Sequence record: PZ386975.1
Length of the DNA: 64,000 nucleotides
DNA from: a phage
Strand: one strand, 5' to 3'
Shown here: positions 3,125-57,052 of the stretch, piece by piece
Layout of the letters: each line of letters opens with the position of its first letter
How positions within the stretch are numbered: position 1 is the first letter of the stretch
Position numbers and translations under genes: made by a program
The notes under the pieces: generated by a model
Told to the model about the DNA's origin: nothing
The model's input: the letters and a program-made list of their open reading frames with translations, nothing else
The model's database searches: none

Positions 3125-3681
3125 TCAGTGTACTTCAAGCCAATTCTTACCAACTTTACCAGTACCAGTTACAAGCGTTTCCTCCTTAAGCCCTAAGTTT
3201 CTTGATGCCTGACCATACATCCAGTCAATCACTGCTTTAACATCCTGTGTCATCTCTTCTGGGCACTCCCAACTATTCTCATCGTGGTATGCTAAAAGCA
3301 ATCTAGCACCAATAGCTGGTTTTCGACCATTCAGCTTTGTAAGACCCTCTTCACAAGTCCTTCTACAAGCAAGGTTGATGGCTTCATTCTGAACCTGACT
3401 TTCCGAACCCATGAGCAAGTAATTTAAAAGTTTGTGCGGAGATTTACACCACAACCATGCACCTGCTACCTTTACAAAACCACCCTTAGATATTGCAGCA
3501 GTCTTACCAAACACCTCTTCAAGAGCCTTCTTAGTGGCTTTGAAGTCTGCTTCTAAATTATCTATCAACTTCTTAATTTTAGGGAGGCGTACAAAGTATG
3601 TTTGCTTAGTTAAAGCACCTTCCTCAGTTGTAGATGCTTTAATCGTCTTAGCAAATTTCTCATCGCCAGCCCCGAACAATA
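3125..3681 (-). CDS. DNA polymerase (family A, T7 gp5-like), C-terminal exon
   Basis: Begins (L)FGAGDEKFAK matching the end of pol A motif B (T7 FLYGAGDEK); contains motif C HDE (LLAYHDENSWECPEE). Confidence 0.65.
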
Positions 3682-4486
3682 CATCTGGTCAATACACTCG
3701 CAAGGTGTACCAGTTCTCTTATGAACTTCTCCGCATTTCTACGGAGTGTCGGACTATATCACGTAGTAGTAGTAATACTACCGTTGCACTTGGGAATGGT
3801 CATTAGCTTACCACCCTACTCTACTCAGTTCATACGTTAAGTATGCTTTTCGATAGTCTCTGAACGTTTCTCTGTTAGGAATCTCTATAGTTATGTTATT
3901 TGCTTAGGTAGTCAATTGCCCTTTGCATATTATCAATGCTATCTGCAAGTAACCCCAAAGCTCTATTGCAATTGTGGCACAACATGCCTCTTACTTTTCC
4001 GGTTTTGTGGTCATGGTCAACGACAAGTTTAGCCTTATGCCGTGAACTATTCATGATAAAACCTTCACCGCCACAAATTTGACATTTGTAATCACAGTTA
4101 CGAAGTAGGGTCTCAACCTCTTCTCTTTCTAAACCATATGTTCTCAGGTAGTAATTCTTAACTCTACCTTTCTCTCCACAATGCGAAGAACAATAAACTT
4201 GCCTTGCTGTTCTAGGCATGAACACCTTCTCACAGCTAGGACATTTCTTAGTAAGAACCCTATATTCTGCTCTTCTGTCAAATTTTAATACGCAACTTCT
4301 GCACCGTTTTTGATTGTATTGGTACGGTTTAAACTCCGTGCCACACTCAGTGCATAATCTCTCTTCGTAACCTGCCATTGTCTCTCTCCTTTGTTTTAGG
4401 AGTCCTAACAGAGACTTCGCTGCTGATTACCATATCTTTACAGACTTAGGCTTCCAGCAATTCACAACGTTTTACATGCGCCACTG
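3682..4486 (-). mobile_element. intervening sequence in DNA polymerase gene, probable group I intron carrying a homing endonuclease
   Basis: Polymerase reading frame interrupted inside motif B; joining exon 1 ending ...GCG T to exon 2 TA TTG TTC GGG restores GIYALLFGAGDEK, colinear with T7 FIYGFLYGAGDEK; upstream exon ends in U and the insert ends in G. Confidence 0.55.
3896..4378 (-). CDS. endonuclease VII-family (His-Me finger) homing endonuclease
   Basis: VVDHDHKTGKVRGMLCHNCNRALG matches the T4 endo VII core as recalled (HLDHDHELNG...GKVRGLLCNLCN); N-terminal Cys-rich zinc ribbon. Confidence 0.65.
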   Translation of the reverse strand: MAGYEERLCTECGTEFKPYQYNQKRCRSCVLKFDRRAEYRVLTKKCPSCEKVFMPRTARQVYCSSHCGEKGRVKNYYLRTYGLEREEVETLLRNCDYKCQICGGEGFIMNSSRHKAKLVVDHDHKTGKVRGMLCHNCNRALGLLADSIDNMQRAIDYLSK

Positions 4487-6659
4487 ACGCATAAATGCCA
4501 TTTTTGGCTTTCTTACGGCCTTTACTAATTTCCTGAAGAAGATTTGTATCCTGAGTGGCTCGACAGGTCAAGATATCTTCCTCTTTATTAAGGCTGAAGT
4601 AGATGCTATTTAAAGTATGCGCATCAGTTCCTGAGTACACCACGTACAAGTCATTTTCCGAATCATAATGCAAATACTTGTCAATCTCTGGGTTTAGATA
4701 CTGGTCAAAATGTTTGCAATAGTATCTGCCATCCTCTTGTTTGACAAACTCAACCTCTTCTTTACCCTCTGTCACTGCTTTAGTGAACTCCTTATCACCC
4801 ATAAAGTTGCACAGCAGCACAAGTTGGGCACTATTCATATCTGCTGAAACAATATTAGTTCCTTCCTCACAAGTCCACACCTCCCTCATAGGCGCTCCAT
4901 AGACAGCAGCACCAGACGGTACGTTTACAATACCATATTGTGTCATACGTCCAGTTGAAGTACCAAACACCATTGCACCAGCACTAAGGCGACCATCAGG
5001 ACGAATCTGGTTAAGCCAACCTTTTTCATCATCCTTTGAGTTCTCAATAGTTCTGCGTCGGTGCATCAAAGTGTAGTATTTCGCAATCTTCTGTCCAAGC
5101 TCACCTTCAATCGTATCATAAGATGATTCAGTAAGTTTTGGTGAAGTACGGATTAAGCAAGGTTCAAGCAAATCTGTGTATTTCTTCACAGACCAGTTAT
5201 GCTCAATGTACTGTACACCTTCATGTTCAACATAACTCAAACCACACCGCTCAACCATTTCCTGCCACTTAGGATGTTTTGTAATCATCTTTTTATTGTC
5301 TTTGAAACGACAAACTTTGACAGGGCGACCATCTGAGTCTTTCTTGTAGTTCCAGTCATCTGGAATCCAACCAACTGATTTCAAGTAGTCTTTAACAACT
5401 GCTACCTGAGTCATACGAGAAACTTCAAACTCAATTGGTGTATATGGTGCATCAATCAAACCTGTGTAGCGACTTGACTCAAGTTCAAAGTGGTTAACAA
5501 CGTGGCTGTTATAGTACTTCACAGTTTTGACTGTTTTTACTGGCTTCCAGTCTTTGCACTTCTTACCAATCTTTGCATTCAACTCATTGCAAATTGCACG
5601 AGCATCCTTCATTGCTACAAAACCTTCCTTGTACTCTTCACCAGTTACAGTGTTGGTTGGTGTATAGCAATTCCTTTTTTCAATGTTAAAAATCTTTGTA
5701 GTTGGCTTACCAAATGGTTTGATTTCATATGTTTGCATCTCACCGTTACGCACCTGCTGACGATACTTTGTCTTAGGGTACTTGGTAATTCTCTTCAGTC
5801 CATCTGCATGACCAAATGTTTCAACATACTCATTCCAAGCTTTTGCAAACTCTTCTCCAGTGACTTTACCTTTGGTCTTAATAGTTGGAGGTAGATGCGG
5901 TTCAACCTCTGAAGCAAGCTCATTAGTCAATTTGTCAAGTTCCTTCACATGGAACTCCATAAGCTCTTTATCAGCTTTCCAGCCATTAATAGCTTGTTGA
6001 CTCATCCAGAAAGATGTCTCTTTAGCTCGCATGTAAGTCTCATAAGTGTCTATACCACACTTCTTAAGCTTGAGATACTCGTTATCAAGTGCCCGTTTAG
6101 TTTTGGCGTTAATACGGATATCTTCTACAACACGAGTGAAGATTTCTGCATTCCACACACCCCAATGTTCAATCTCTGGTTTACGGACACCAACACGAGC
6201 ACCCCATGCAGCCAAACCATGAGCACCTTTATAACCCTTTGGAGTTGGTCTATCCATCCACTGAACACGAGACTGGATAAGAGAATCCTGAAAGAAATTA
6301 CTCCACGGCTTACATTTTGGATTATCAAAGTTCCATAAATCCGGTGCAATGTGATTGAAGACCCACCAGTCATAACCGAGGCCGTTATGGATACAAAGTC
6401 GTTTTGCCTTTAACGCAAACTCAACACCTTCACGTAAACCACCCTTGATGTACTTAGTGTACTTGTGACCGAGGATAGGCTCATCTGTAAAGACCCATAC
6501 AGGTGGCTCTTCATCGTCAGATTTATAGTCTGCAAAAGCCATTACGTGAACTTTAGTGAACTCAAGGAGTAAACCATCAGTCTCTGTATCACCAACTAAA
6601 TGTAAGTTTTTAAAATCTACGTTTTCCATTTTTACTCCCTCTAAAATCATTAACCTCAT
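4487..6659 (-). CDS. DNA polymerase (family A, T7 gp5-like), N-terminal exon with 3'-5' exonuclease domain
   Basis: Exo I VGDTETDG, Exo II HNGLGYD, pol motif A-like VSADMNSAQLVLL; colinear with T7 gp5 blocks (AHGLAAWG, APYTPIEF); annotated frame ends at an in-insert stop at 4446. Confidence 0.7.
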
Positions 6660-16191: not shown

Positions 16192-18426
16192 ATGATTAAG
16201 ACAATTAAAAAATCAAACGGTACAGTAGTAAGCTTTGACCCAGAAAGACTGAATAAGTGGGCATCATGGGCAGATAAGCGCGGAATCATCTGGTCAGAAG
16301 TCACTATGGAAGCCATGAAACGTGTCTATGAAGGTTGCACTACAAAAGAGATGCACCAAGCCATGATTGATGTTTGTGTTGATAAACAAACTCAAGAGTA
16401 CTCAGATATGGCTGGACGGCTACTTCTGGGAATTATCTACAAAGAAGCCTTTGGAGGTTTTACTAAGGTTCCTACGCTGGTTACCTTCGTTAAAAATATG
16501 GAGAGAGCAGGACTTTGGGAGAAGATGGACTATTCTCAGGAAGAGCTTGAATACCTGCAAGGGTACATTGTGCACTCAAAAGATATCTCTTATGGTTATG
16601 CAGTCCTGAAACAGTTCAGAGACAAGTATGGTATCCGTGATATTAAAACGGGAAGACTTTTTGAGTCACCACAATTTATGTTTATGGGTATGGCTATGAA
16701 AGCCTTTGAGAAGCAACCAAAGCACCGTAGACTGCAAGATGTTATCAAGCTGTACACTTACCTATCTGACCTGAAGATTAACGCTCCTACACCTTATTTA
16801 AACGGTTTAAGAGCAACTAAATCAGGCTATGCGTCATGCTGTTTGATTAAGGCAAATGACACTGCCGAATCTCTCGGTATTGCTGCAAAGGTTGCTTATG
16901 ACATGACTACAAAGCAAGCTGGTATCGGGATGCTGATGGAGACTCGCACTATTGGTGATGGTATCCGTCAAAACACGATTGAGCACATGGGTAAGCTGCC
17001 TTATTATAAGCTTGTACGTTCATCTGTAGAGGCAAACAAACAGAAGAGTCGTGGTGGTTCAGCTAATAACTTCTACACTGCTCTAGACCCGCAGATTGAA
17101 GATTTACTGCGTTTGAAGCACCCTACAACGGTTCCTTCTAAACGTATTAATGAGATGGACTACTCATTCGGCACAAACGATTATTTCTGGCAGTGTGTTC
17201 AGTATGATACGGATTGGTTGCTATTCTCTTACAAAGATGCACCAAAACTCTATGACATGTTCTACACAGCATCTGCTGATGAGTTTGCTATGGCAGTTGG
17301 TCACGCAGTACATTCAGGAGTTAAGCACAGACGAGTAAAGGCTCGTGAAATTGCCAAGCTGTTTATTCAACAGCGTTATGCTACAGGTCGTGTGTATCCA
17401 TTCTTCACTAACAATGCGAACACACATACACCATTTAAAGAACCATTGAAGATGTCAAATCTTTGTATGGAAATTGTGTTGCCAGTGTATGGTTTTGAGA
17501 AAGAGACAGACCTTTACAGAGACGATGCTGTGAAAGAGGATGGTGAGGTGGCTCTTTGCTTCCTAGCTAGTTTGGTTGCAGGGAGAATTTCAGAAGATGA
17601 ATACGCTGACGTTGCTTATTATGCTCTTGCAATGGTTGACTCCGTTATTGACCTTATGGATTATCCGTATCCGTCGATGCGTAACCATGTTCAGAAGCGT
17701 CGTTCTGTTGGGATTGGCCTTACAAATGTGGCTCATTACCTTGCGAAGAACTACGTGAACTACTCTTCACGAGCAGGTAAAACGAAACTTCATGAACTGG
17801 CAGAGATGCACTCTTACTATCTGCATGAAGCCTCTCTGAGACTTGCTAAAGAGCGTGGCGTTCCAGAATACATGAAGTTCACTAAGTATCCTGAAGGCTG
17901 GGTTCCTCCAAAGACAGCTAACAAGAAGATTGATGAAAAGCATGATGCAAAACTACGATATGATTGGGATGACTTAGCACAACGTATCAAAGAAAATGGT
18001 GGAATCCGAAACTCTGTATTAGAAGCTTACATGCCTAATGAGAGTTCTTCACTGGCAACCAATACGACAAATGGCTTGTATCCAATTCGTGACTTTATTT
18101 TAACTAAAAAGTCTGCAACTGGTAACGTACTGTTTATTGTTCCAGATTATGAAGAGCTAAAGTATGTCTATGAAATTGCTTGGGATATTGACACCTTTGA
18201 TATGATTGATTGTTATGCAATTGTTCAAAAGTTCACTGGTCAAGCTATCTCTTCAGACTTCTATGTTGACTATGCAAAGTCTAAGAAGGTATCATTGTCT
18301 CAAGCTCTGAAGTACATGATTTATGCCAACTCAGTAGGTATGAAAACCATGTACTACCTTAACAGTCGCATTGGTGTAGGTAAATCTGCACTGCAAGATG
18401 CTTATTGCGAGGGTTGTGGTGTTTAG
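16192..18426 (+). CDS. nrdA: ribonucleotide reductase class Ia large subunit
   Basis: 744 aa, N-terminal ATP-cone-like start, C-terminal YCEGCGV tail typical of class I alpha subunits. Confidence 0.8.
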   Translation: MIKTIKKSNGTVVSFDPERLNKWASWADKRGIIWSEVTMEAMKRVYEGCTTKEMHQAMIDVCVDKQTQEYSDMAGRLLLGIIYKEAFGGFTKVPTLVTFVKNMERAGLWEKMDYSQEELEYLQGYIVHSKDISYGYAVLKQFRDKYGIRDIKTGRLFESPQFMFMGMAMKAFEKQPKHRRLQDVIKLYTYLSDLKINAPTPYLNGLRATKSGYASCCLIKANDTAESLGIAAKVAYDMTTKQAGIGMLMETRTIGDGIRQNTIEHMGKLPYYKLVRSSVEANKQKSRGGSANNFYTALDPQIEDLLRLKHPTTVPSKRINEMDYSFGTNDYFWQCVQYDTDWLLFSYKDAPKLYDMFYTASADEFAMAVGHAVHSGVKHRRVKAREIAKLFIQQRYATGRVYPFFTNNANTHTPFKEPLKMSNLCMEIVLPVYGFEKETDLYRDDAVKEDGEVALCFLASLVAGRISEDEYADVAYYALAMVDSVIDLMDYPYPSMRNHVQKRRSVGIGLTNVAHYLAKNYVNYSSRAGKTKLHELAEMHSYYLHEASLRLAKERGVPEYMKFTKYPEGWVPPKTANKKIDEKHDAKLRYDWDDLAQRIKENGGIRNSVLEAYMPNESSSLATNTTNGLYPIRDFILTKKSATGNVLFIVPDYEELKYVYEIAWDIDTFDMIDCYAIVQKFTGQAISSDFYVDYAKSKKVSLSQALKYMIYANSVGMKTMYYLNSRIGVGKSALQDAYCEGCGV

Positions 18427-18481: not shown

Positions 18482-18739
18482 ATGAAAGATTTAATAGAAA
18501 AACATGAGCGGCCTATATACTTGCTCCACAAGCCTCGGAAAACGATGTACTATGTGAGTAGCACAGATATGATGATAAAACAAAATGATGACTCATGGGT
18601 TGCTGGTATCTCTTACATCTCTACAGCAGATGGTAAAATCTACGCAAGACCTTATGAGATGTTTAACAAAGAAAATTGGGAAGTTTTAGACAGAAAACAA
18701 GCCTTAGAAATGATAAAGAAAGGAGAAATCACGCTATGA
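18482..18739 (+). CDS. hypothetical protein
   Basis: Start moved to MKDLIEK, which has an RBS. Confidence 0.35.
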   Translation: MKDLIEKHERPIYLLHKPRKTMYYVSSTDMMIKQNDDSWVAGISYISTADGKIYARPYEMFNKENWEVLDRKQALEMIKKGEITL

Positions 18740-19809
18740 TTAACCAGCACCCAATCTTTTTAGGTGGTGAGAGAAAAACTTTTGACTCACTTAATAAGCA
18801 CTACCCAAAAATCTTTGAACTTTATAAACAACAAAAAGCACAAGACTGGTCAGAAGATGAGTTCCCTTTTGAACAATCACGTCTTGATTTTGAGAGTGTC
18901 CCAGCATCAATGTCAGGTGTAATGCTTGAGATTCTTAAGTGGCAATGGGAAGCAGATACTCAAGTTGCTAAGAGCTTGGCATTTGCCTTTGCACCATTTA
19001 TCTCTGATGACATTTATGCAACTGCAATTATGAAGCAGTCTGAGATTGAAAACCTACATGCTCTCACTTACTCAGAGATTGTAAGACAATGTATTAAAAA
19101 CCCTGAAACAATCTTAGATGAGATTAACCAGAATGTTGCTGTGCAAGACCGATTAAAAACTGTGAATCGTGTTCTTGAAGAATTACTGGATGAAGGGATA
19201 AACTACCGACTGAGTTATGTCCGTGATTCACTTCTGGACAAAGACCCTTTACACTTCCATAAAGTGATTCTGAAAGGTCTATTTGCAGTGACTGCACTGG
19301 AAGGTATATCTTTTATGGCATCCTTTGCATGTACTTTTGCACTTGATGCTCAAGATAAATTTCAGGGTATTGCTCAAGCTGTGCAGAAGATTATGCTTGA
19401 TGAAATCCTTCACACTAAAATTGATATTGAAGTTTTAAAAGAAACTTTAAGGGATGATGAGTGGCAGAAAGCTTTTCAACAAATTCTTCCAGAGATTAAA
19501 GTAATCTTAGATGAAGTAGTTGAAAGTGAAGAGAAATGGTCGTATTATATCTTCTCCGAAGGACGTGCTGTAGTTGGCTTAAATACAAAGCTTCTTCATG
19601 AGTGGGTTTATTATAATGCTGCCCCACTGTATGATATGTTTGGCATTCCCAGAGATTTTGTAGCTCCTAAAGAACCACCTTTAAAGTACATGATTAAGAA
19701 GATGGAAATTGATAAAGAGCAGAATGCTAATCAGGAGCAACAGAACGGTGCGTACCTATTGAATACTGTTGTAGATGATTTGAATAGTGGATTTTTAGAG
19801 GTTCCTTAA
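18736..19809 (+). CDS. nrdB: ribonucleotide reductase class Ia small subunit
   Basis: Ferritin-like iron-binding region (EILHT); start moved to MINQHP after AAGGAGA RBS; directly follows nrdA. Confidence 0.75.
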   Translation: MINQHPIFLGGERKTFDSLNKHYPKIFELYKQQKAQDWSEDEFPFEQSRLDFESVPASMSGVMLEILKWQWEADTQVAKSLAFAFAPFISDDIYATAIMKQSEIENLHALTYSEIVRQCIKNPETILDEINQNVAVQDRLKTVNRVLEELLDEGINYRLSYVRDSLLDKDPLHFHKVILKGLFAVTALEGISFMASFACTFALDAQDKFQGIAQAVQKIMLDEILHTKIDIEVLKETLRDDEWQKAFQQILPEIKVILDEVVESEEKWSYYIFSEGRAVVGLNTKLLHEWVYYNAAPLYDMFGIPRDFVAPKEPPLKYMIKKMEIDKEQNANQEQQNGAYLLNTVVDDLNSGFLEVP

Positions 19810-20051
19810 TGACTTATGTAATTTACTCCAAAACTGGATGCCCTCAGTGTGAGACTGCAAAGAATTTTGCAAAAGCTCGTGGTATTGACCATGTTGTGAG
19901 AATGTTAGGGCAGGACTATGAGCTATCAGACTTGATGGATATTGCACAGATGCCAGTTCGTCAGATGCCATTCATCATGAAAACCGATGGACAAAACCTA
20001 AAACCTGTTGGGACGCTACAGAATTTTATGGCAGAGGTGAATAATGCTTAA
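19809..20051 (+). CDS. glutaredoxin/NrdH-like redoxin
   Basis: CPQC active-site motif in 80 aa, adjacent to RNR genes. Confidence 0.65.
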   Translation: MTYVIYSKTGCPQCETAKNFAKARGIDHVVRMLGQDYELSDLMDIAQMPVRQMPFIMKTDGQNLKPVGTLQNFMAEVNNA

Positions 20052-20250
20052 ACGCATTTGGGAAGGTTTGGTTGTTGATGCACCAGCTATTGTGATTGGT
20101 ATGCTTATTGTTAACCTATTTACTGACTTTGAACAAGGTTCATTGTTTGGAGCCATGTTACTATGGGTTATCTTCGAAATATTAGAGATACAGTTAGGTA
20201 TCACTGAAAAACTAAGAGAACTCTTTGCGAAGTTTTCTAAAAAGATTTAA
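20044..20250 (+). CDS. small membrane protein
   Basis: Hydrophobic 68 aa ORF. Confidence 0.3.
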   Translation: MLKRIWEGLVVDAPAIVIGMLIVNLFTDFEQGSLFGAMLLWVIFEILEIQLGITEKLRELFAKFSKKI

Positions 20251-20257
20251 AATGAAA

Positions 20258-20279
20258 GGGTCTCTTCGGAGACCTTTTT
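20258..20279 (+). terminator. rho-independent terminator
   Basis: gggtctcttcggagacc hairpin then TTTTT. Confidence 0.6.
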
Positions 20280-20298
20280 AGCATGTAAAGGGGAAATA

Positions 20299-21498
20299 AT
20301 GAACAAAGTACAGATTATTAAAAAGAATGGCTCACTCGAAGAACCTGATATCAAAAAAGTTTTAGCAGCAGTCACAAAGTCAGCTAATAGGGTTGGGTAT
20401 AAAGAACTCCCACCAGATGTTACTCAAGCTCTTGAGTCAGCATTTATGAGGATTCTGGTAAAGTCCACTAAGCAGAATAATTTGCTAATTTCTGTAAACG
20501 ATATTCACAGTATTGTTGAGGGTGCTTTGGCAGAAGTCAATCACGAAATTTATGAGTCTTACTCAACATACAGAAATTACCGTAAAGAAGTTGCTCAAAA
20601 TTGGGATGAACTCTACCAGAAGACCAAAGATACACTCTTCTTAGGTGACAGAGAGAATGCTAACTTTGACAGCAGTTTAATTTCTACAAAAGGCTCAATT
20701 ATTCGTGGTTACCTGACTAAAGAAATCTTTAAACAGTACCATTTAACACCAGAGGAACTTGAAGCCATTGAAAAAGGGTTTATCTATATCCATGATTTAA
20801 GAGACCTAATTTTTGGTGGTATCAACTGTTGCCTGTTTGACATTGGTAAAGTCCTGAAAGGTGGCTTTGAAATGTCTGGCATCGAATATTGTGAACCAAA
20901 GTCTGTGCTGTCGGCCTTACAGGTTATTGGTGACGTAGTTCTTTCAGCAACTGCACAGCAATTTGGTGGCTTTACTTTAGCAGAGATTGATAAGGTACTC
21001 GTACCGTATGCTAAGAAGTCTCTACGCTATCATGCTGAGAAAGCAGCATCTTATGGTATTCCTAAAGAACATTACCACAATTATATCATGGAGCAGCTAC
21101 AGATTGAACTGACTCAAGGTTTCCAGTCACTTGAAATGAAACTCAATACTGTGCCTTGTAGCCGTGGGGATTTTGCATTTACAACTTTGACATTCGGGTT
21201 ACTTGATTCAGATATGTCTAATGAAGATAACCGACTGCAATACATGATTGCAAGTACTCTCCTAGATGTTCGTATGAATGGACAAGGTAAGAGCAAGAAG
21301 CCTGTTGTATTCCCTAAACTGGTTTATATTTATGACCAGAAGAGACACGATGAGAATATCTGTCAAGGACACCTGTACAGTAAAGCCATTGAGTGTTGCT
21401 CTAAAGCAATGTATCCAGATTTCTTAAGTGTATCTGGTCATGGTGCTGTAGCAGAGGCTTTTGAGCGTTCTGGTAAGGTTATTTCACCGATGGGTTAA
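20299..21498 (+). CDS. nrdD: anaerobic ribonucleotide reductase (class III), exon 1
   Basis: Ends ...ISPMG at a position that in E. coli NrdD is followed by CRSFL; stop codon lies in the insert. Confidence 0.65.
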   Translation: MNKVQIIKKNGSLEEPDIKKVLAAVTKSANRVGYKELPPDVTQALESAFMRILVKSTKQNNLLISVNDIHSIVEGALAEVNHEIYESYSTYRNYRKEVAQNWDELYQKTKDTLFLGDRENANFDSSLISTKGSIIRGYLTKEIFKQYHLTPEELEAIEKGFIYIHDLRDLIFGGINCCLFDIGKVLKGGFEMSGIEYCEPKSVLSALQVIGDVVLSATAQQFGGFTLAEIDKVLVPYAKKSLRYHAEKAASYGIPKEHYHNYIMEQLQIELTQGFQSLEMKLNTVPCSRGDFAFTTLTFGLLDSDMSNEDNRLQYMIASTLLDVRMNGQGKSKKPVVFPKLVYIYDQKRHDENICQGHLYSKAIECCSKAMYPDFLSVSGHGAVAEAFERSGKVISPMG

Positions 21499-22237
21499 CA
21501 AGCTCTATAGCTCATCTAAAACGTGCCTAAACAGGGAAACTCTACAGATGTAGACAATCCTGTGCTAAATGATGTACGATGTAAGAAACTATACAACATA
21601 GGAGTCTTACATGCCAAACTATCACGTCACTGAAGATGGAAAAGTCTTTAGGGAAAATGGTGTAGAGCTTACGCAGTGGAAATCCAACACTGGGTATATG
21701 AAAGTGAGGTTTTACGGTAAGAAGAATCGTGACATGTATGTCCACAGGTTAGTTGCTGAGAAATATGTACCTAACCCGAATAATCTTCCAATTGTAAAAC
21801 ATAAGGACGATAACAAACTAAATAACCACGCATCTAACTTAGAATGGGGTACTCATTCTGAGAATGCTAAAGAAGGTTATGAGAACGGTTGCTACAAGTT
21901 CCACAAGCGTTCATATGCCGTGAAAGCCACACACAAAGTGACAAGGGAAGTTATTGTTACTAAGTCAATACGAGAGTTATCCAATATACTTGGACACAAT
22001 CGCAAGACCATCTCTTCAATATTGAAGGGTGTAAAAGAGCATAATAACTTCGAATATGAGTTTGAATACATCTAAATGCCGAACGACTAACCGTGATGAA
22101 TGTAGCGGTGTAGGGTCAAGCGACTCGAAATGGTACGCTACTTAGAAATAAGTAGAAGATATAGTCTGGACTTACTGGCGACAGTAAGCAGCTTGAATAA
22201 AGCGGGGTAAGCTTAGCGAACTTACCTGAACAACAAG
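21499..22237 (+). mobile_element. intervening sequence in nrdD, probable group I intron carrying an HNH endonuclease
   Basis: Exon 1 ends in T; in-frame sequence CRAFLSPYLNENGEEFYVGRANIGAVSLNLP resumes at 22238; insert ends in G. Confidence 0.55.
21611..22075 (+). CDS. HNH homing endonuclease (intron-encoded)
   Basis: IVKHKDDNKLNNHASNLEWGTHSEN HNH motif. Confidence 0.65.
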   Translation: MPNYHVTEDGKVFRENGVELTQWKSNTGYMKVRFYGKKNRDMYVHRLVAEKYVPNPNNLPIVKHKDDNKLNNHASNLEWGTHSENAKEGYENGCYKFHKRSYAVKATHKVTREVIVTKSIRELSNILGHNRKTISSILKGVKEHNNFEYEFEYI

Positions 22238-23185
22238 TGTAGAGCATTTTTATCACCATATCTTAACGAGAATGGGGAAGAGTTCTATGTAGGTCGTGCT
22301 AACATTGGTGCTGTGTCTTTGAACTTACCAATGATTTACCAGTATTCTAAAGAGAATGAATTAGATTTCTGGAAAGAGCTTGATAAGTACCTAGAAATGA
22401 TTCGCAGCTTCCACAAGAAACGTTACGAAATGATTGCTAATATGCCAGCAAGTTCTAACCCTCTTGCGTTCACACAAGGTGGTCTGTACAAAGGGAATAA
22501 GAAACCTACTGACAGGGTTGGCTGGGATATCGTGAAGTCCTTCACAGCTTCTTTTGGGGTTACTGCGCTTGATGAGCTATCTGTTCTTGCTGAAGGTAAA
22601 CGACTTCATGAAGTTGGAAGCTGTAGTTTTGCATACGATGTTCTGGAATACATCAACATGAAAACTGAAGAGTTTAAAAATGAAGATGGCTTCTTATATG
22701 CCGTCTATGGTACTCCAGCAGAATCACTTTGTGGAACTCAGCTAAAACAGTTCAGAGATATGTTTGGCGTTATCAAAGGTGTTTCTGATAAGGAATACTT
22801 TACAAACAGCTTCCATATGAATGTTGCAGCAGACATTACACCATTTGAGAAGCAGGACTTAGAAGAACCCTTCTTCCATATCTGTAGAGGCGGTAGAATC
22901 CAGTATGTAAGAGTGGCTAATCCAGAAAACTTATCAGCACTTAAGAGTTGTATTACGAGAGGTATGTTGAAAGGTTTCTATCAGGGACTGAACTTTGACT
23001 TAGCAATCTGTGAACATTGCGGTAACAGACCAAAGGCTGATGTTGAAGAATGTGAGGTTTGTCATTCACATGATATCTCTGTGATTAACAGGGTGTGCGG
23101 GTATCTCGGGTGGACTAAGATTAAAGGCGAATCCCGAATGAATGATGCAAAAATCGCTGAGATTCGTGACAGAGTTTCTATGTAA
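22238..23185 (+). CDS. nrdD: anaerobic ribonucleotide reductase (class III), exon 2
   Basis: Contains glycyl-radical region NRVCGYLG near C-terminus; frame is open upstream of the annotated GTG at 22313. Confidence 0.65.
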   Translation, partial: CRAFLSPYLNENGEEFYVGRANIGAVSLNLPMIYQYSKENELDFWKELDKYLEMIRSFHKKRYEMIANMPASSNPLAFTQGGLYKGNKKPTDRVGWDIVKSFTASFGVTALDELSVLAEGKRLHEVGSCSFAYDVLEYINMKTEEFKNEDGFLYAVYGTPAESLCGTQLKQFRDMFGVIKGVSDKEYFTNSFHMNVAADITPFEKQDLEEPFFHICRGGRIQYVRVANPENLSALKSCITRGMLKGFYQGLNFDLAICEHCGNRPKADVEECEVCHSHDISVINRVCGYLGWTKIKGESRMNDAKIAEIRDRVSM

Positions 23186-23194
23186 AACTTGACA

Positions 23195-23233
23195 AGGTGA
23201 TGTGAGTCTTGATAGGCTTACATCACCTTTTTT
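23195..23233 (+). terminator. rho-independent terminator
   Basis: ggtgatgtgagtcttgataggcttacatcacc hairpin then TTTTTT. Confidence 0.55.
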
Positions 23234-23339
23234 ATTGGATGTTAGATATGGCAGAGAACATCATTGGCCTATTCATAGGTTCTGTCTTACTAGGGTTCTT
23301 TTTAGGACTCTCTTATTGTGAATTAAGAGGCAAGTTAAA

Positions 23340-23540
23340 ATGTTTAAAATATCAAAAACGTTGATATACATACTACACATAGCAATCTTCTTCTTTGGTG
23401 TTAGTGTTATGGTGTGGGGTTTCTCAGACCCACAATGGAGCCTCTCATATCATGGTCAGATGGATTTATGGTCATGCTTCAAACCATTTTTAGGGTTAGC
23501 TATAGCATTCAGTGCATTGCCAACTAAGGTGAAATTATGA
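23340..23540 (+). CDS. small membrane protein
   Basis: Hydrophobic N-terminal helix. Confidence 0.3.
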   Translation: MFKISKTLIYILHIAIFFFGVSVMVWGFSDPQWSLSYHGQMDLWSCFKPFLGLAIAFSALPTKVKL

Positions 23541-24237: not shown

Positions 24238-24723
24238 ATGAATTACATGGAGATTAGACCATTTGACACAGCTAATGGTGAAGGGGTTCGTGTAAGCCTC
24301 TTCGTAGCTGGTTGTAAGCATCACTGTGAAGGCTGCTTTAACAGGGAGTCTTGGAAGTTTAATGCTGGTAAAGAGTTTACCTATGCAAACCTCTACGGCA
24401 TCATTAAGTTAATGGATGATAATGCTATCAGTGGGTTGTCAATACTTGGTGGGGAGCCTCTGGATGACAGAAACATTCAAGAGGTCACCAACATATGCAA
24501 GCGTATTAAAACTGTTTATCCAGAAAAGTCTATATGGCTTTGGACAGGTTTTCAACTGCACGAAAAAATTCACCTAGATGTGATGAAATATGTTGACGTG
24601 GTGATTGATGGTAAGTATGATTCATCTAAACCAACAGTTAAACCATATCGTGGTTCTGATAACCAAAACCTCTGGAGAAAAGAGTATGGGTGGCAAGGTG
24701 ATTGTCAATGGCGAGCAGAATGA
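24238..24723 (+). CDS. nrdG: anaerobic ribonucleotide reductase activating protein (radical SAM)
   Basis: CKHHCEGC = CxxxCxxC radical-SAM cluster motif; 161 aa. Confidence 0.7.
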   Translation: MNYMEIRPFDTANGEGVRVSLFVAGCKHHCEGCFNRESWKFNAGKEFTYANLYGIIKLMDDNAISGLSILGGEPLDDRNIQEVTNICKRIKTVYPEKSIWLWTGFQLHEKIHLDVMKYVDVVIDGKYDSSKPTVKPYRGSDNQNLWRKEYGWQGDCQWRAE

Positions 24724-55052: not shown

Positions 55053-55129
55053 CTCTGTTTAGCTCAGCTTGGTAGAGCGTTCCGTTTGGGGCGGTAAGGC
55101 CGGAGGTTCAAGTCCTCCAACAGAGACCA
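55053..55129 (+). tRNA. tRNA-Pro (TGG), tentative
   Basis: 7 bp acceptor ctctgtt/aacagag, T-arm ggaggttcaagtcctcc, encoded CCA. Confidence 0.6.
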
Positions 55130-55146
55130 AATTTAAAGGGGTTACT

Positions 55147-55503
55147 ATGAGATTTTTAAAAGAATGTCCAGTTCATGGTTTAACTGAACATAGCATTCAT
55201 AAGAATGGTAACGCCGGTAATAGAGTAAATTGTCTAAAATGTTGTGCATTAAGGACAAAACTTAGAGAGGATGCCAATAGGGAGAAAGCATACAAGTTTT
55301 ATGGCGATAGTTGCAAAATTTGTGGCTATAATAAATGTAAAAATGCTTTAGAATGGCATCACCTTAACCCAAACGAAAAAGAGAATACACCATCAAAAAT
55401 TATGGGTGCATCTTGGGAAAAGGTTAAAAAAGAACTTGATAAATGTGTTTTGCTCTGTGCTAATTGCCACAGAGAGGTTCATAGTGGAATTACAACGGTT
55501 TAA
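55147..55503 (+). CDS. HNH endonuclease inside tRNA cluster
   Basis: CKICG...EWHHLNP...CANCHREVH; start moved to MRFLKE because annotated start overlaps a tRNA. Confidence 0.55.
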   Translation: MRFLKECPVHGLTEHSIHKNGNAGNRVNCLKCCALRTKLREDANREKAYKFYGDSCKICGYNKCKNALEWHHLNPNEKENTPSKIMGASWEKVKKELDKCVLLCANCHREVHSGITTV

Positions 55504-55504
55504 T

Positions 55505-55579
55505 GTCGTAGAAGGCAAATGGTTAGCCACCTGACCTTCAATCAGTTGCTCGCAGGTTCGAATCCTGTCTACGACACCA
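55505..55579 (+). tRNA. tRNA, anticodon possibly TTC (Glu)
   Basis: Acceptor gtcgtag/ctacgac, T-arm gcaggttcgaatcctgt, CCA. Confidence 0.5.
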
Positions 55580-55586
55580 GTTTTGA

Positions 55587-55659
55587 CAGAAGACCAATTA
55601 CAGCAAACTTAATCTTATTCATCTGAAGGTAAATCGGACAAAGAAGAGATTTGGTCTGG
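55587..55659 (+). ncRNA. conserved stem element A (CAGAAGACCA ... TTGGTCTGG)
   Basis: Member of a 4-copy family with covarying closing stem and conserved TACAGCAA. Confidence 0.35.
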
Positions 55660-55670
55660 TCATTAAGAAT

Positions 55671-55747
55671 TGCGGGTATAGAGAAAGGGCGTCTCACATG
55701 TCTCATTAGCATGGTATCGGCAGGTTCGACTCCTGCACCCGCCTCCA
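55671..55747 (+). tRNA. tRNA-Met-like (CAT), non-canonical 1:72 pair
   Basis: Anticodon loop ctcatta, T-arm gcaggttcgactcctgc, CCA; acceptor pairing imperfect. Confidence 0.4.
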
Positions 55748-55753
55748 ATTTTG

Positions 55754-55813
55754 CAGAAGACCGTATTCAGCAACAAACTACTTTTTGCGGATAAAAGAAA
55801 AAACACGGTCTGG
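55754..55813 (+). ncRNA. conserved stem element B (CAGAAGACCG ... CGGTCTGG)
   Basis: Covarying G-C in place of A-T relative to element A. Confidence 0.35.
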
Positions 55814-55824
55814 CAATGTATTAA

Positions 55825-55901
55825 GGTTAGGAAGCACATAAGGTATGTGCGGTCGCCTGTTAAGCGAATGGCACAGGGTTCGAATCCCTGACTAACCGCC
55901 A
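55825..55901 (+). tRNA. tRNA-Asn (GTT)
   Basis: Acceptor ggttagg/actaacc, anticodon loop ctgttaa, T-arm cagggttcgaatccctg, CCA. Confidence 0.6.
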
Positions 55902-55970
55902 AATTTAGGAGAGAAGCGATTGCTCACCGATTTGTAAGGTGCAAGTCCTTAGCCTGAATAGAAATTAAAT

Positions 55971-56058
55971 GTGTCGTTATCCCGTAGATGGTAGCGGTGG
56001 GGACTGTAAATCCCTTGTCATTGAGACTCGGTAGGTTCGACTCCTACACGGCACACCA
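55971..56058 (+). tRNA. tRNA-Tyr (GTA), long variable arm
   Basis: Acceptor gtgtcgt/acggcac, anticodon loop ctgtaaa, T-arm gtaggttcgactcctac, CCA. Confidence 0.6.
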
Positions 56059-56063
56059 ATAAA

Positions 56064-56141
56064 GGTTATGTAGTTTAATTTGGTTAAAATACTCCCCTGT
56101 CACGGGAGATGATGAGGGTTCAAATCCCTTCGTAACCGCCA
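56064..56141 (+). tRNA. tRNA-Asp (GTC)
   Basis: Acceptor ggttatg/cgtaacc, anticodon stem-loop ctccc ctgtcac gggag, CCA. Confidence 0.65.
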
Positions 56142-56202
56142 ATTTTGAGAGGGCTATTTAGCCCCTCCCTTAAAGGGTTCTTACGAGTATCCTTTAAAGG
56201 AG

Positions 56203-56278
56203 CAGAAGACCAAATACAGCAAGAACGTATGAAAATTTCAAGCCAATTTAATTTTGAAAAATTTAAAACTTGGTCTGG
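56203..56278 (+). ncRNA. conserved stem element C (CAGAAGACCA ... TTGGTCTGG)
   Basis: Same family as A, B, D. Confidence 0.35.
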
Positions 56279-56291
56279 CTCAACAAATTTA

Positions 56292-56422
56292 CAGAAGACC
56301 GTTTACAGCAAAACTTAAACAATCTATTTCTCGGTAAAGAAAAGGCGAAGGTTCGATTCCTTCACTCGGCAGATGTCGAGTTGGTGTAATGGTAGCACTT
56401 AAGATGATAAACAACGGTCTGG
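56292..56422 (+). ncRNA. candidate Y-RNA-like ncRNA (element D) with permuted tRNA-like module
   Basis: Closing stem CAGAAGACCG/CGGTCTGG; internal T-arm gaaggttcgattccttc, acceptor-like hairpin actcggc-agat-gtcgagt, then D-arm-like ggtgtaatggtagcac; no conventional 5' acceptor partner. Confidence 0.4.
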
Positions 56423-56424
56423 TA

Positions 56425-56566
56425 ATTATCTTTGTAGATAAGTTATTAAGCTTACCTGTGAGTATGCGACCACAAAGGGTGAAAGGGTAAATTCTAGATT
56501 TAAACCCAAAAAGGCACATCGCTACAGACCTTAAGCAAGTCTGGGTAGCTTATCTACAAAGATAAT
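56425..56566 (+). repeat. 18 bp perfect inverted repeat enclosing about 106 nt
   Basis: attatctttgtagataag at 56425-56442 and its exact reverse complement at 56549-56566. Confidence 0.6.
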
Positions 56567-56571
56567 TTAAT

Positions 56572-56647
56572 GGAAGTGTAGCAGAATGGTGATGCGGCAG
56601 ACTTTTAATCTGACAGGCGATGGGTTCGAATCCCTCCACTTCTACCA
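56572..56647 (+). tRNA. tRNA-Lys (TTT)
   Basis: Acceptor ggaagtg/cacttct, anticodon loop cttttaa, T-loop ttcgaat, CCA. Confidence 0.55.
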
Positions 56648-56651
56648 AAAT

Positions 56652-56728
56652 GGTTCAGTCGCAGATAAGGTAATTCAAGGGTCTCATAAGACCTATGAAT
56701 GTGGGTTCGATTCCCATCTGAACCTCCA
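56652..56728 (+). tRNA. tRNA-Met or Ile2 (CAT)
   Basis: Exact 7 bp acceptor ggttcag/ctgaacc, anticodon loop ctcataa, CCA. Confidence 0.6.
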
Positions 56729-56730
56729 AT

Positions 56731-56805
56731 TGTGGGTTAGCATAAATGGTAATGCAAACGGCTGATAACCGTTAGAAGAGGGTTCGATACCCTCACCTAC
56801 AACCA
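56731..56805 (+). tRNA. tRNA-Ile (GAT)
   Basis: Anticodon stem-loop aacgg ctgataa ccgtt, T-arm gagggttcgataccctc, CCA. Confidence 0.65.
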
Positions 56806-56820
56806 ATTTCAATAAAGTTG

Positions 56821-56849
56821 TTGACATTGAGATGTGACTACTTTATAGT
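56821..56849 (+). promoter_or_regulatory. sigma70-like promoter inside tRNA cluster
   Basis: TTGACA, 17 nt spacer, TATAGT. Confidence 0.55.
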
Positions 56850-57052
56850 AACCTTAGTTTTCGTTGCGTAGCGTCTATTTTGCAAATTTAAAATAAATGC
56901 AAACGACAATGTTTTTCTGGCAGTAGCTTGATAGGCTAAACACCAGTGAGGTCTTCCAATCCCTCATCAAAGAATTTGGCGTACTAGCCCACGGTATGAT
57001 TAATAAAGTGGGCATCTTTAAGGGCTTTCTAAGAGAGTCTTTAAAGATTAAT

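Follow-up and report, generated by a model that had tools for sequence, protein, structure and literature searches.

The window analysed here, a 64,000-nt stretch of DNA from a Felix O1-like phage (PZ386975.1), carries an nrdD gene whose coding sequence lies in two segments, and the insert that separates them contains an open reading frame of its own for an HNH homing endonuclease. The activase gene nrdG follows downstream. Class Ia NrdA and NrdB are also encoded by the phage, just upstream. The features of the locus are collected in Table 1.

Table 1 Features of the nrdD locus, with positions counted from the first base of the window.
Feature	Position	Strand	Description and evidence
nrdD exon 1	20299–21495	+	Codons 1–399: ATP-cone and N-terminal half of NrdD barrel; Pfam PF03477, PF13597
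Group I intron, subgroup IA2	21496–22237	+	742 nt; empty-site allele, RF00028, covariation, RNAalifold
Internal guide sequence	21502–21516	+	Read off the sequence
P10	Guide 21502–21509 (GCUCUAUA) with exon 2 22238–22245 (UGUAGAGC)	+	8 bp
P1	Guide 21510–21516 (GCUCAUC) with exon 1 21489–21495 (GAUGGGU)	+	7 bp
Core 5′ half	21522–21576	+	P3 5′ strand 21522–27; P4 21532–36 with 21558–62; P5 21541–45 with 21550–54; P6 5′ strand 21564–65; P6a 5′ strand 21571–76
Hairpin at ORF start	21579–21612	+	Stem AUGUAAGA 21579–86 with UCUUACAU 21605–12; −11.3 kcal/mol, z −2.7
HNH homing endonuclease gene	21611–22075	+	154 aa, in P6a loop; PF13392, phrog_59, I-HmuI match
Core 3′ half	22067–22226	+	P6a 3′ strand 22067–72; P6 3′ strand 22078–79; P7 22085–89 with 22162–66; P7.1 22090–93 with 22106–09; P7.2 22113–17 with 22122–26; P3 3′ strand 22132–37; P8 22138–44 with 22149–55; P9 22171–77 with 22182–88; P9.1 22191–94 with 22200–03; P9.2 22206–11 with 22221–26
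nrdD exon 2	22238–23185	+	Codons 400–714; PF13597 and PF01228; T4 NrdD alignment; PDB matches 9D3X, 1H78
nrdG	24238–24723	+	Radical-SAM activase of NrdD; PF13353, E 2.3e-43; context, intact partner gene

The upstream reading frame (20299–21498) encodes 399 residues ending in KVISPMG before its stop, as the initial annotation had read it, and matches the ATP-cone and the N-terminal part of NRDD (profile positions 1–250 of 562) in Pfam. Exon 1 is collinear with the nrdD of phage ESCO49, which is uninterrupted. The frame from 22238, which reads CRAFLSPYLNENGEEFYVGRANIGAVSLNLP, matches NRDD profile positions 264–560 together with Gly_radical. Across the exon junction, NrdD proteins of known structure have the sequence (A/S)PMGCRSFL, which bears out the early proposal that the frame upstream of the second ORF continues NrdD (SPMGCRSFL). 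Exact removal of the insert gives a 714-aa NrdD with zero internal stops that retains the equivalents of T4 NrdD C79, C290, N311 and G580 as well as four zinc cysteines. When mapped onto T4 NrdD, Cys177 in exon 1 aligns with Cys79, and Cys400, the first codon of exon 2, aligns with Cys290; exon 2 also holds Asn421 (T4 Asn311), the zinc-site cysteines, and Gly687 (T4 Gly580). Established work on T4 NrdD assigns the thiyl radical to the cysteine with which Cys400 aligns, and T4 Gly580, the counterpart of Gly687, is the glycyl radical site.

The intron boundaries can be fixed to the base because intron-less relatives, such as phage ESCO49, read CCGATGGGT followed directly by TGCAGAGCC. This places the insertion after the Gly399 codon and directly before that of Cys400 (GGT↓TGT, with the arrow marking the junction). 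The last base of exon 1 is T at 21495, the first three intron bases (21496–21498) are an in-frame stop UAA, and the terminal base at 22237 is G; no boundary other than 21496–22237 preserves the frame while also following a T and ending in G. The initial annotation had placed a 739-nt insert at 21499–22237, after a T and ending in G. The 3′ end holds, but the 5′ end lay 3 nt too far downstream, since the TAA at 21496–21498 would remain in the mRNA and the base preceding 21499 is A, not T. A boundary at 21497–22238 gives the same product through the duplicated T and was rejected, as the intron would then end in T rather than G. An intein was ruled out, since a stop codon opens the insert; by coordinate arithmetic, the HNH ORF also lies out of the exon 1 frame. 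An 80-nt query spanning the intron-less junction is unbroken in about 140 records, whereas against intron-bearing records the match ends at query base 41, one base beyond the junction, because the first base past the junction (T) is identical in exon and intron.

At the gathering threshold, an Rfam search of the whole window returned tRNAs only, with the intron falling below threshold. As the ORF breaks the model, the search was redone on the insert and on alleles that lack the ORF. Against RF00028 the insert scores 33.1 bits (E 1.8e-6, or 1.2e-4 against the whole window), below the gathering score of 50, while the ORF-less alleles of EC6 and RPN213 score 53.6 and 60.4 bits. The EC6 allele has 1 core difference in 316 nt, and ORF-less alleles overall have 1–3. 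The covariance-model check proposed at the outset therefore succeeds for the ORF-less alleles and falls short for the window copy itself. In the Michel–Westhof classification, subgroup IA2 is defined by two additional helices, P7.1 and P7.2, that lie between P7 and the P3 3′ strand. All the helices of a complete group I fold of this subgroup, of the T4 td, nrdB and nrdD type, were located in the intron RNA. P1 and P10 are made by neighbouring halves of one guide sequence, with a U21495–G21510 wobble in P1 at the splice site.

The predicted fold was compared with the cores of 11 relatives, trimmed of their ORFs and including those of T4 td and T4 nrdD. Paired cells make up 92.2%, versus 35–42% when the partners are slid, a figure biased upwards in that the structure came from the window sequence and the constructs were trimmed by hand. 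Less touched by this bias are the double-change counts and RNAalifold. Changes on both sides of a pair occur in 50 of the 77 pairs, a number reached by none of 500 shuffles, and RNAalifold independently finds P1, P3, P4, P5, P6, P6a, P7.1, P8, P9 and P9.2. The helices P3, P4, P6a and P8 are 98–100% paired with compensatory changes; both-side changes are seen in 5/6 pairs of P3 (100% paired), 6/6 of P6a (98.5%) and 6/7 of P8 (100%), and also in 4/4 of P7.1 (97.7%). P1 pairing is retained in 88% of cells. Neither P7 nor GAUAUAGUC varies among the 11 relatives, and P7 and the J8/7 element are the same as in T4 td and T4 nrdD. Support is weakest for P7.2, P9.1 and parts of P10, which MAFFT mis-registers because the loop lengths differ.

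The endonuclease ORF is woven into this fold, with the 3′ strand of P6a supplied by its final two sense codons. Its product matches PF13392 (HNH_3; E 1.3e-10, 41.2 bits, cutoff 24.8) and phrog_59 (E 1.2e-42), confirming that the insert codes for an HNH nuclease, as the first reading had it. Among solved structures the best match is I-HmuI (PDB 1U3E; E 4.7e-9, residues 3–152), from the DNA polymerase intron of Bacillus phage SPO1. The alignment is near full length, taking in the N-terminal region, the HNH motif (KHKDDNKLNNHASNLEWGTHSEN, intact) and the C-terminal region (a helix-turn-helix in I-HmuI). Each of the two enzymes has its gene in a group I intron of a phage gene for DNA metabolism, but they share little sequence similarity and have different host genes and targets; I-HmuI nicks a single strand. 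Between the window and UAB_Phi87 the ORF shows 27 synonymous and 8 non-synonymous codon changes, which indicates that it is under purifying selection. The hairpin at the ORF start encloses the Shine–Dalgarno AGGAG (21600–04) and draws the first two AUG bases into its stem, and by analogy with T4 intron ORFs it may regulate translation. A promoter scan of 20000–23400 gave 7 sites versus 8.7 in shuffled sequence, and so no excess.

The reading that we favor, at a probability of about 90%, is that a mobile IA2 group I intron with an HNH homing endonuclease gene interrupts nrdD at Gly399–Cys400. The initial annotation had already favored a group I intron with an HNH gene, and the restoration of a full-length NrdD with all catalytic residues upon exact excision upholds it. 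Under this model, nrdD would be transcribed as a single pre-mRNA in which the guide base-pairs to the final 7 nucleotides of exon 1 (P1) and the first 8 of exon 2 (P10), and the P3–P9 core would bind guanosine and carry out both transesterifications. The exons would then be ligated as GGU↓UGU, with the spliced junction ...CCGAUGGGU↓UGUAGAGCA..., to encode the 714-aa protein, and the UAA that forms the first intron codon would halt ribosomes entering from exon 1. The I-HmuI-like enzyme presumably nicks or cuts the intron-less nrdD of co-infecting phages near the insertion site, and recombinational repair would copy the intron and adjoining exon sequence into the cut allele (homing). Splicing by this intron, and the activity and target of its HNH protein, are thus predicted from sequence features; the literature that we searched holds no experiment on splicing or endonuclease activity in any Felixounavirus.

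An nrdD intron with an HNH gene is a commonplace kind of mobile element for which annotations already exist. Salmonella phage Meda (MH586731.1) has in the same gene and at the same position a 742-nt insert that is 98.0% identical, and in its record the nrdD CDS is a join of two parts that enclose the HNH endonuclease gene. The Meda genome announcement describes an HNH that interrupts nrdD and then 'another intron' in the DNA polymerase gene (PMC6486253). The Meda element is structurally no different from ours, and the work on it does not describe the fold, the intron class or the splice-site pairing and includes no experiment. In most sister records, among them FSL SP-010, UAB_Phi87 and Mushroom, two separate genes are annotated instead of a join.

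Beyond these close relatives, five further phage lineages have homologous introns inserted at the identical site, GGT↓TGY, and their ORFs, where present, are homologous. They include the introns of phi92, Vequintavirus (navn, EPFV3), Phapecoctavirus nieznany, and the Vibrio phages F97 and 1.084.O. All occupy the same phosphodiester between the codons for Gly and the catalytic Cys (...ATGGGT↓intron...G↓TG(T/C)...), and they have the IA2 architecture in common, with a core identity of 66–71%. The ORFs, where present, sit in the P6a loop and are 48% (navn) and 40% (Vibrio phage F101, a sister) identical to that of the window. By contrast, the host genes are only ~30% identical to the window NrdD at the protein level, and the introns differ in the sequence of the peripheral helices P7.2, P8, P9 and P9.1. 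The phi92 copy is 279 nt long without an ORF, and the phi92 record annotates gp192A as a 'spliced variant'.

The T4 td intron (I-TevI) resembles that of the window in being IA2, in carrying its ORF in the P6 or P6a loop, and in having a UAA right after the 5′ splice site. J6/7–P7, J8/7 and the intron 3′ end are nearly identical, and BLAST finds 71% identity over 160 nt in the 3′ half. However, the td host gene is thymidylate synthase, its endonuclease is GIY-YIG rather than HNH, it has a P2 hairpin that the window intron lacks, and core identity is 65%. A specifically td-like core was considered and rejected, as trimmed-core identity is 65–71% to all relatives, with the same-site nrdD introns marginally closest. 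The parallel with the T4 nrdD (sunY) intron that the initial annotation drew holds as to the kind of element, with the same host gene family, the IA2 family and 69% core identity. It does not extend to orthology, which we reject because site, endonuclease family and ORF placement all differ: the T4 intron lies at T4 codon ~180, corresponding to residue ~280 here and about 120 codons upstream of Gly399–Cys400, its endonuclease I-TevII is GIY-YIG with the ORF after P9, and P6a in T4 is a closed hairpin.

Felixounavirus records fall into three allele states, with about 140 lacking the intron, about 33 having the intron without the ORF, and about 60 having intron and ORF. There have been two independent ORF deletions, one of 426 nt and in frame (EC6 type) and one of 450 nt (RPN213 type), which shows that the phage can do without the ORF, while these endonuclease-less alleles preserve a 292–316-nt RNA core intact. 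The intron core has 1–3 differences in 316 nt versus 133–155 in 2145 nt of exon (Fisher p about 2e-7 and 9e-7), which corresponds to 0.3–0.9% divergence (roughly 99–100% identity) against 6–7%. The last ~100–200 nt of exon 1 also have almost no mismatches. A near-identical intron core beside diverged exons points to recent homing.

These data bear directly on the possibility that the ribozyme works but its HNH ORF is an inert passenger or does not home, with the intron inherited vertically and lost by deletion. A length of 154 aa is short for a homing endonuclease, and two deletions of the ORF are in keeping with such a passenger. We nevertheless consider it unlikely, as the HNH motif region has been kept intact and can be aligned with I-HmuI from end to end, synonymous changes in the ORF outnumber non-synonymous ones, and the intron is far closer between genomes than are the exons; together with the mismatch-free tract of exon 1 beside the junction, this contrast is the pattern expected of recent endonuclease-driven transfer.

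It is also conceivable that the intron splices poorly or not at all, and that nrdD is a pseudogene in intron-bearing phages, which would draw dNTPs from NrdAB. The presence of class Ia NrdA and NrdB makes this thinkable, nrdD may be dispensable in aerobic laboratory growth, and the D1-2 record gives exon 1 and the intron as a misc_feature 'similar to' NrdD, with no nrdD CDS. Other observations speak against it. In intron-bearing genomes synonymous and non-synonymous codon changes stand at 114:13, 105:25 and 120:23, a sign of strong purifying selection on both exons; none of the spliced CDSs has an internal stop, the catalytic residues are all retained, and nrdG is intact. Alleles differ little in the core (7 in 277 nt, versus 39 in 465 nt of ORF), and P7 and J8/7 match exactly those of the T4 td and T4 nrdD introns, which self-splice. 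We therefore regard the pseudogene as very improbable.

Scarcely tenable is a truly split nrdD in the style of Aeh1 nrdA-a/nrdA-b, in which an endonuclease cassette separates halves that are translated apart and assemble without splicing: most GenBank records list two nrdD CDSs and an endonuclease, one paper speaks of a 'split gene' (PMC4837284), and a functional split RNR has precedent in Aeromonas phage Aeh1 (PMC3653736), but the exon 2 frame has a TAG stop at 22214–16, 7 codons upstream of Cys400, and the first ATG, GTG or TTG after it is the GTG at 22313 (residue 425), so that a separate second half would lack Cys400 (T4 C290) and Asn421 (T4 N311), and the insert contains a complete, covarying group I core whose survival in endonuclease-less alleles a plain endonuclease cassette cannot account for.

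With the mobile intron thus preferred, the distribution of its relatives suggests a broader picture, towards which we lean by a modest degree: a single lineage of IA2 intron and I-HmuI-like HNH enzyme, specialised for the junction of the nrdD glycine and thiyl-radical cysteine codons, may have moved between no fewer than six phage groups that are unrelated to one another (Felixounavirus, Vequintavirus, Phapecoctavirus, Justusliebigvirus and two Vibrio phage groups) and may now be sweeping Felixounavirus, where uninvaded, invaded and ORF-decayed alleles coexist. Our literature search found no description of such a specialised, group-crossing, sweeping nrdD intron lineage.

For annotation, the consequence is practical. 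Most intron-bearing Felixounavirus records, many of them for candidates in biocontrol or therapy, list nrdD as two genes, and the recorded NrdD proteins are truncated artefacts, the second gene having been given a start that falls past the catalytic cysteine; joining the exons at GGT↓TGT recovers the real enzyme of 714 aa. The system raises no new question, but the use of the most conserved catalytic codon as a site, its reuse across phage groups and the three allele states make it a clean textbook case of the homing cycle that lends itself to study by simple mixed infections. If the broader picture is true, these widely isolated phages would be a natural system for measuring homing dynamics.

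The nrdD gene of this Felix O1-like myovirus (genus Felixounavirus) is interrupted by an insert that encodes an HNH protein, as the initial annotation had proposed. The upstream 399-aa ORF, ending in ...KVISPMG*, matches positions 1–250 of 562 in the NRDD family profile (its N-terminal part) and also the ATP-cone domain, the frame that opens at 22238 (CRAFLSPYLNENGEEFYVGRANIGAV...) covers NRDD profile positions 264–560 and the glycyl-radical domain, and a 154-aa ORF for an HNH_3 protein lies between the two halves. The insert had been placed at 21499–22237, directly after an exon-terminal T. Its 3′ end, with a terminal G, holds; the 5′ end is 3 nt off, as base 21498 is an A and positions 21496–21498 form a TAA stop that would stay in the message. 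An insert of 742 nt, from 21496 to 22237, is the sole solution in which the frame is kept, the preceding base is T and the last base is G. The corresponding sequence of ESCO49, a phage with an uninterrupted allele, is CCGATGGGT/TGCAGAGCC (slash, junction), which shows that the insert is exactly TAACAAG...CAACAAG.

Features of the nrdD region and of other loci in the window
Feature	Position (nt)	Remarks
DNA polymerase gene	3125–6659	minus strand
Break in polymerase gene	~3685–4492	minus strand
Endonuclease_7 ORF in the break	3896–4378	160 aa
nrdA	16192–18426	
nrdB	18676–19809	
Glutaredoxin	19809–20051	
Hairpin 5′ of nrdD	20259–20274	
nrdD upstream ORF	20299–21498	
P1	21489–95 and 21510–16	GAUGGGU (exon 1) with GCUCAUC; U21495–G21510 at splice site
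P10	21502–09 and 22238–45	GCUCUAUA with UGUAGAGC (exon 2)
Hairpin at start of intron ORF	21579–21612	
HNH ORF	21611–22075	
Hairpin 3′ of nrdD	23194–23229	
nrdG	24238–24723	
tRNA gene cluster	55053–60305	plus strand

The block around nrdD consists of nucleotide-metabolism genes. The 2887-nt nrdD region is 97.0% identical to that of Salmonella phage FSL SP-010 and 95–97% identical in dozens of Salmonella and E. coli phages. Just 5′ of the nrdD start is a hairpin resembling a terminator, called on the minus strand; GGTCTCTTCGGAGACC with a T run after it can also be read on the plus strand there. Beyond the nrdD stop there is a terminator-like stem of 16 bp with a T run, and the record of Salmonella phage Meda annotates terminators at positions matching both hairpins. 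Elsewhere in the window, 23 tRNA genes are clustered, one of which (57369–57456) has a long variable arm and also a weak tRNA-Sec score; a sub-threshold "permuted tmRNA" match (56748–56931) falls inside the cluster.

Splicing of 21495 to 22238 would give a 714-aa NrdD free of internal stops, with 34% identity to T4 NrdD. The T4 residues C79, C290, N311 and G580 are all retained (C177, C400, N421 and G687), as are the four zinc cysteines, and we take their roles to be those established for T4 NrdD, with Cys400 as the thiyl-radical cysteine. As C290 aligns with C400, the intron sits directly 5′ of the codon for this cysteine. Two separately translated, functional halves, the case that the initial annotation had named as contrary to its reading, would require a start in the exon 2 frame. 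That frame contains a TAG 7 codons 5′ of Cys400 and its earliest possible start is a GTG at 22313, corresponding to residue 425, so that a separate C-terminal half would lack both Cys400 and Asn421, which speaks against a split gene. A pseudogene is likewise rejected, as the spliced coding sequence has no internal stops and the 133–155 differences in 2145 positions between intron-bearing genomes are nearly all synonymous (synonymous to non-synonymous, 114:13, 105:25 and 120:23).

The element is a group I intron, a real and ordinary feature that the initial annotation had read correctly. A covariance-model search, the check suggested there, gave a sub-threshold match: the Rfam group I model RF00028 matches the 742-nt insert at 33.1 bits (E 1.8e-6), mostly over J8/7–P7–P9 (GAAGAUAUAGUCU...), which is short of its gathering value of 50, as the model is split by the ORF. 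Natural ORF-less alleles exceed the threshold (53.6 and 60.4 bits), and that of phage EC6 differs from the window core at 1 base in 316. By inspection the full IA2 architecture is present, with a guide sequence whose two exon-binding halves adjoin, helices P3, P4, P5, P6, P6a, P7, P7.1, P7.2, P8, P9, P9.1 and P9.2, GAAA and GCGA loops on P8 and P9, respectively, and a terminal G. We counted the pairs of this structure in a MAFFT alignment (A2) of 11 ORF-trimmed introns from the window, RPN213, T4 td, T4 nrdD, two Vibrio phages, EPFV3, navn, nieznany and two Aeromonas phages. Paired cells make up 92.2%, a value inflated by drawing the structure from one member sequence, versus 35–42% after sliding the 3′ partners by 1–3 columns. 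Both-side changes, whose count is free of this inflation, occur in 50 of the 77 pairs, and none of 500 shuffles reached the observed values. The clearest helices are P3 (100% paired, 5 of 6 pairs covarying), P6a (98.5%, 6 of 6) and P8 (100%, 6 of 7), while P7 is unchanging across the 11 introns. RNAalifold, which was not given the drawn structure, recovered P1, P3, P4, P5, P6, P6a, P7.1, P8, P9 and P9.2; the pseudoknotted P7 is beyond its prediction.

The P6a loop contains the HNH ORF, whose stop codon falls in the internal loop between P6 and P6a and whose final two sense codons make up the 3′ strand of P6a. The encoded protein matches PF13392 and phrog_59 (E 1.2e-42), and its match among solved structures is I-HmuI (1U3E; E 4.7e-9) over nearly the full length. 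Against the most divergent ORF-bearing allele, that of UAB_Phi87, there are 7 differences in the 277 nt of ribozyme core and 39 in the 465 nt of ORF, the latter giving 27 synonymous codon changes and 8 non-synonymous ones, most of these conservative, which indicates that protein and RNA are both constrained. At the ORF start lies a hairpin (−11.3 kcal/mol, z −2.7) with the Shine-Dalgarno sequence inside it and the first AUG bases paired in its stem; by analogy with T4 intron ORFs, it may restrict translation from the pre-mRNA.

Queried with the hypothetical spliced junction, Felixounavirus relatives show three allele classes: uninterrupted, with an insert of ~292–316 nt, and with the 742-nt insert (~140, ~33 and ~60 records, respectively, not dereplicated). 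Each short insert is this element without most of its ORF; two independent deletions account for them, a clean in-frame 426-nt loss in EC6 and D1-2 (remnant ATGCCA/AATAAC...TAA) and a 450-nt loss with other end points in RPN213. An 80-nt intron-less junction is unbroken in the ~140 uninterrupted records, among them Felix O1 itself, whose genome paper likewise states that these genes are free of insertions (PMC3185647). Where the intron is present, the match runs to query base 41, one base beyond the junction, since exon and intron share a T there. Two records labeled Campylobacter phage A132 and A126 (MG065664.1 and MG065668.1) contain a Felixounavirus nrdD with a 316-nt intron, 96% identical to the window, and probably do not represent Campylobacter phages but mislabeled records or mixed assemblies.

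Sequence comparisons give evidence of mobility: between genomes the intron is far more alike than its host gene, with 1 and 3 core differences in 316 nt against 133 and 155 in the 2145 nt of exons (Fisher p 2e-7 and 9e-7); among ORF-bearing alleles the insert is ~99.3% identical, compared with 96.5% for the whole region. In exon 1 the first 100–200 nt from the junction are almost mismatch-free and 8–14 mismatches per 100 nt lie beyond, the pattern expected of co-conversion. Intron-less ESCO49 differs from intron-bearing exon 2 at +3, +9, +12, +18 and +25, mostly third-codon positions. We put at roughly 90% the probability that nrdD is interrupted at Gly399/Cys400 by a mobile group I intron of subgroup IA2 encoding a homing endonuclease of the I-HmuI-like HNH type, its splicing and homing being inferred.

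Earlier phage papers describe an nrdD "split by a homing endonuclease" (PMC4837284) or mention just the large number of homing endonucleases (PMC3728262); one lists "two introns" among the ncRNAs of phage SPJ41 with no detail given (PMC9951933). In the Meda record the insert is 98% identical and nrdD is given as a join of two parts that enclose the HNH gene; the Meda announcement calls a polymerase insert "another intron" (PMC6486253). The element had thus been recognized, though not characterized. Our literature search found no paper pairing Felixounavirus with "group I intron", no splicing experiment, and no account of intron class, guide pairing, catalytic-codon site, cross-genus family or population structure. 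The DNA polymerase gene of the window is also split: its ORF stops at 4446 and resumes, after an Endonuclease_7 (HNH-type) ORF (PF02945, E 4.5e-20), to run on to 3125, with weak RF00028 matches at 4369–4459 (24.6 bits) and 3729–4062 (17.9 bits). In Meda the polymerase is annotated as a join around an ORF-less intron; the window is ~537 nt longer there. Tentative splice sites (GGCATTT/ATGCG...GACCAG/ATGTATTG) would yield IYVLFGAGDEK, resembling PolA motif B.

The likeness drawn initially to the T4 nrdD intron stands as to the kind of element but not as to the insertion: the T4 intron is sited at T4 codon ~180 rather than at the Gly/Cys site, and has a closed P6a and encodes I-TevII, a GIY-YIG enzyme, 3′ of P9. 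Homologous introns at the exact site are found in Vequintavirus (EPFV3, navn), Phapecoctavirus nieznany, phi92 and Vibrio phages 1.084.O and F97. The shared site reads ...ATGGGT/...G/TGTAGA (GGT/TGC in F97), the carriers' NrdD proteins are only ~30% identical to that of the window, and the window core is 65–71% identical to all relatives. Most have a ~169-aa ORF in P6a (48% identical to the window ORF in navn and 40% in F101, a sister phage of F97); that of phi92 is ORF-less, and its record annotates a "spliced variant". The navn nrdD contains a second, ORF-less intron of about 300 nt (locus L015, ~1112–1422) after ...INTLTSVNG, aligned to T4 ...EVNTLFSSNG around T4 residue 190, which makes a third nrdD insertion site, separate from the T4 and Gly/Cys sites. 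The F97 gene (locus L006, 225–2706) is annotated in at least four pieces, with a further break at 3303/3304; two inserts encode HNH proteins of 310 aa (327–1256) and 168 aa (2027–2533), the second being the same-site homolog of the window intron. Closely related ORF-less IA2 cores interrupt the large terminase gene of Aeromonas phage 2L372D (locus L012, ~1730–2030), an unannotated gene of phiA047 (L014, ~1730–1990) and the phiKZ-like RNA polymerase beta-subunit gene of Pseudomonas phage HUST_1 (L010, ~1650–1980), indicating that the same ribozyme family is distributed over many phage genes.
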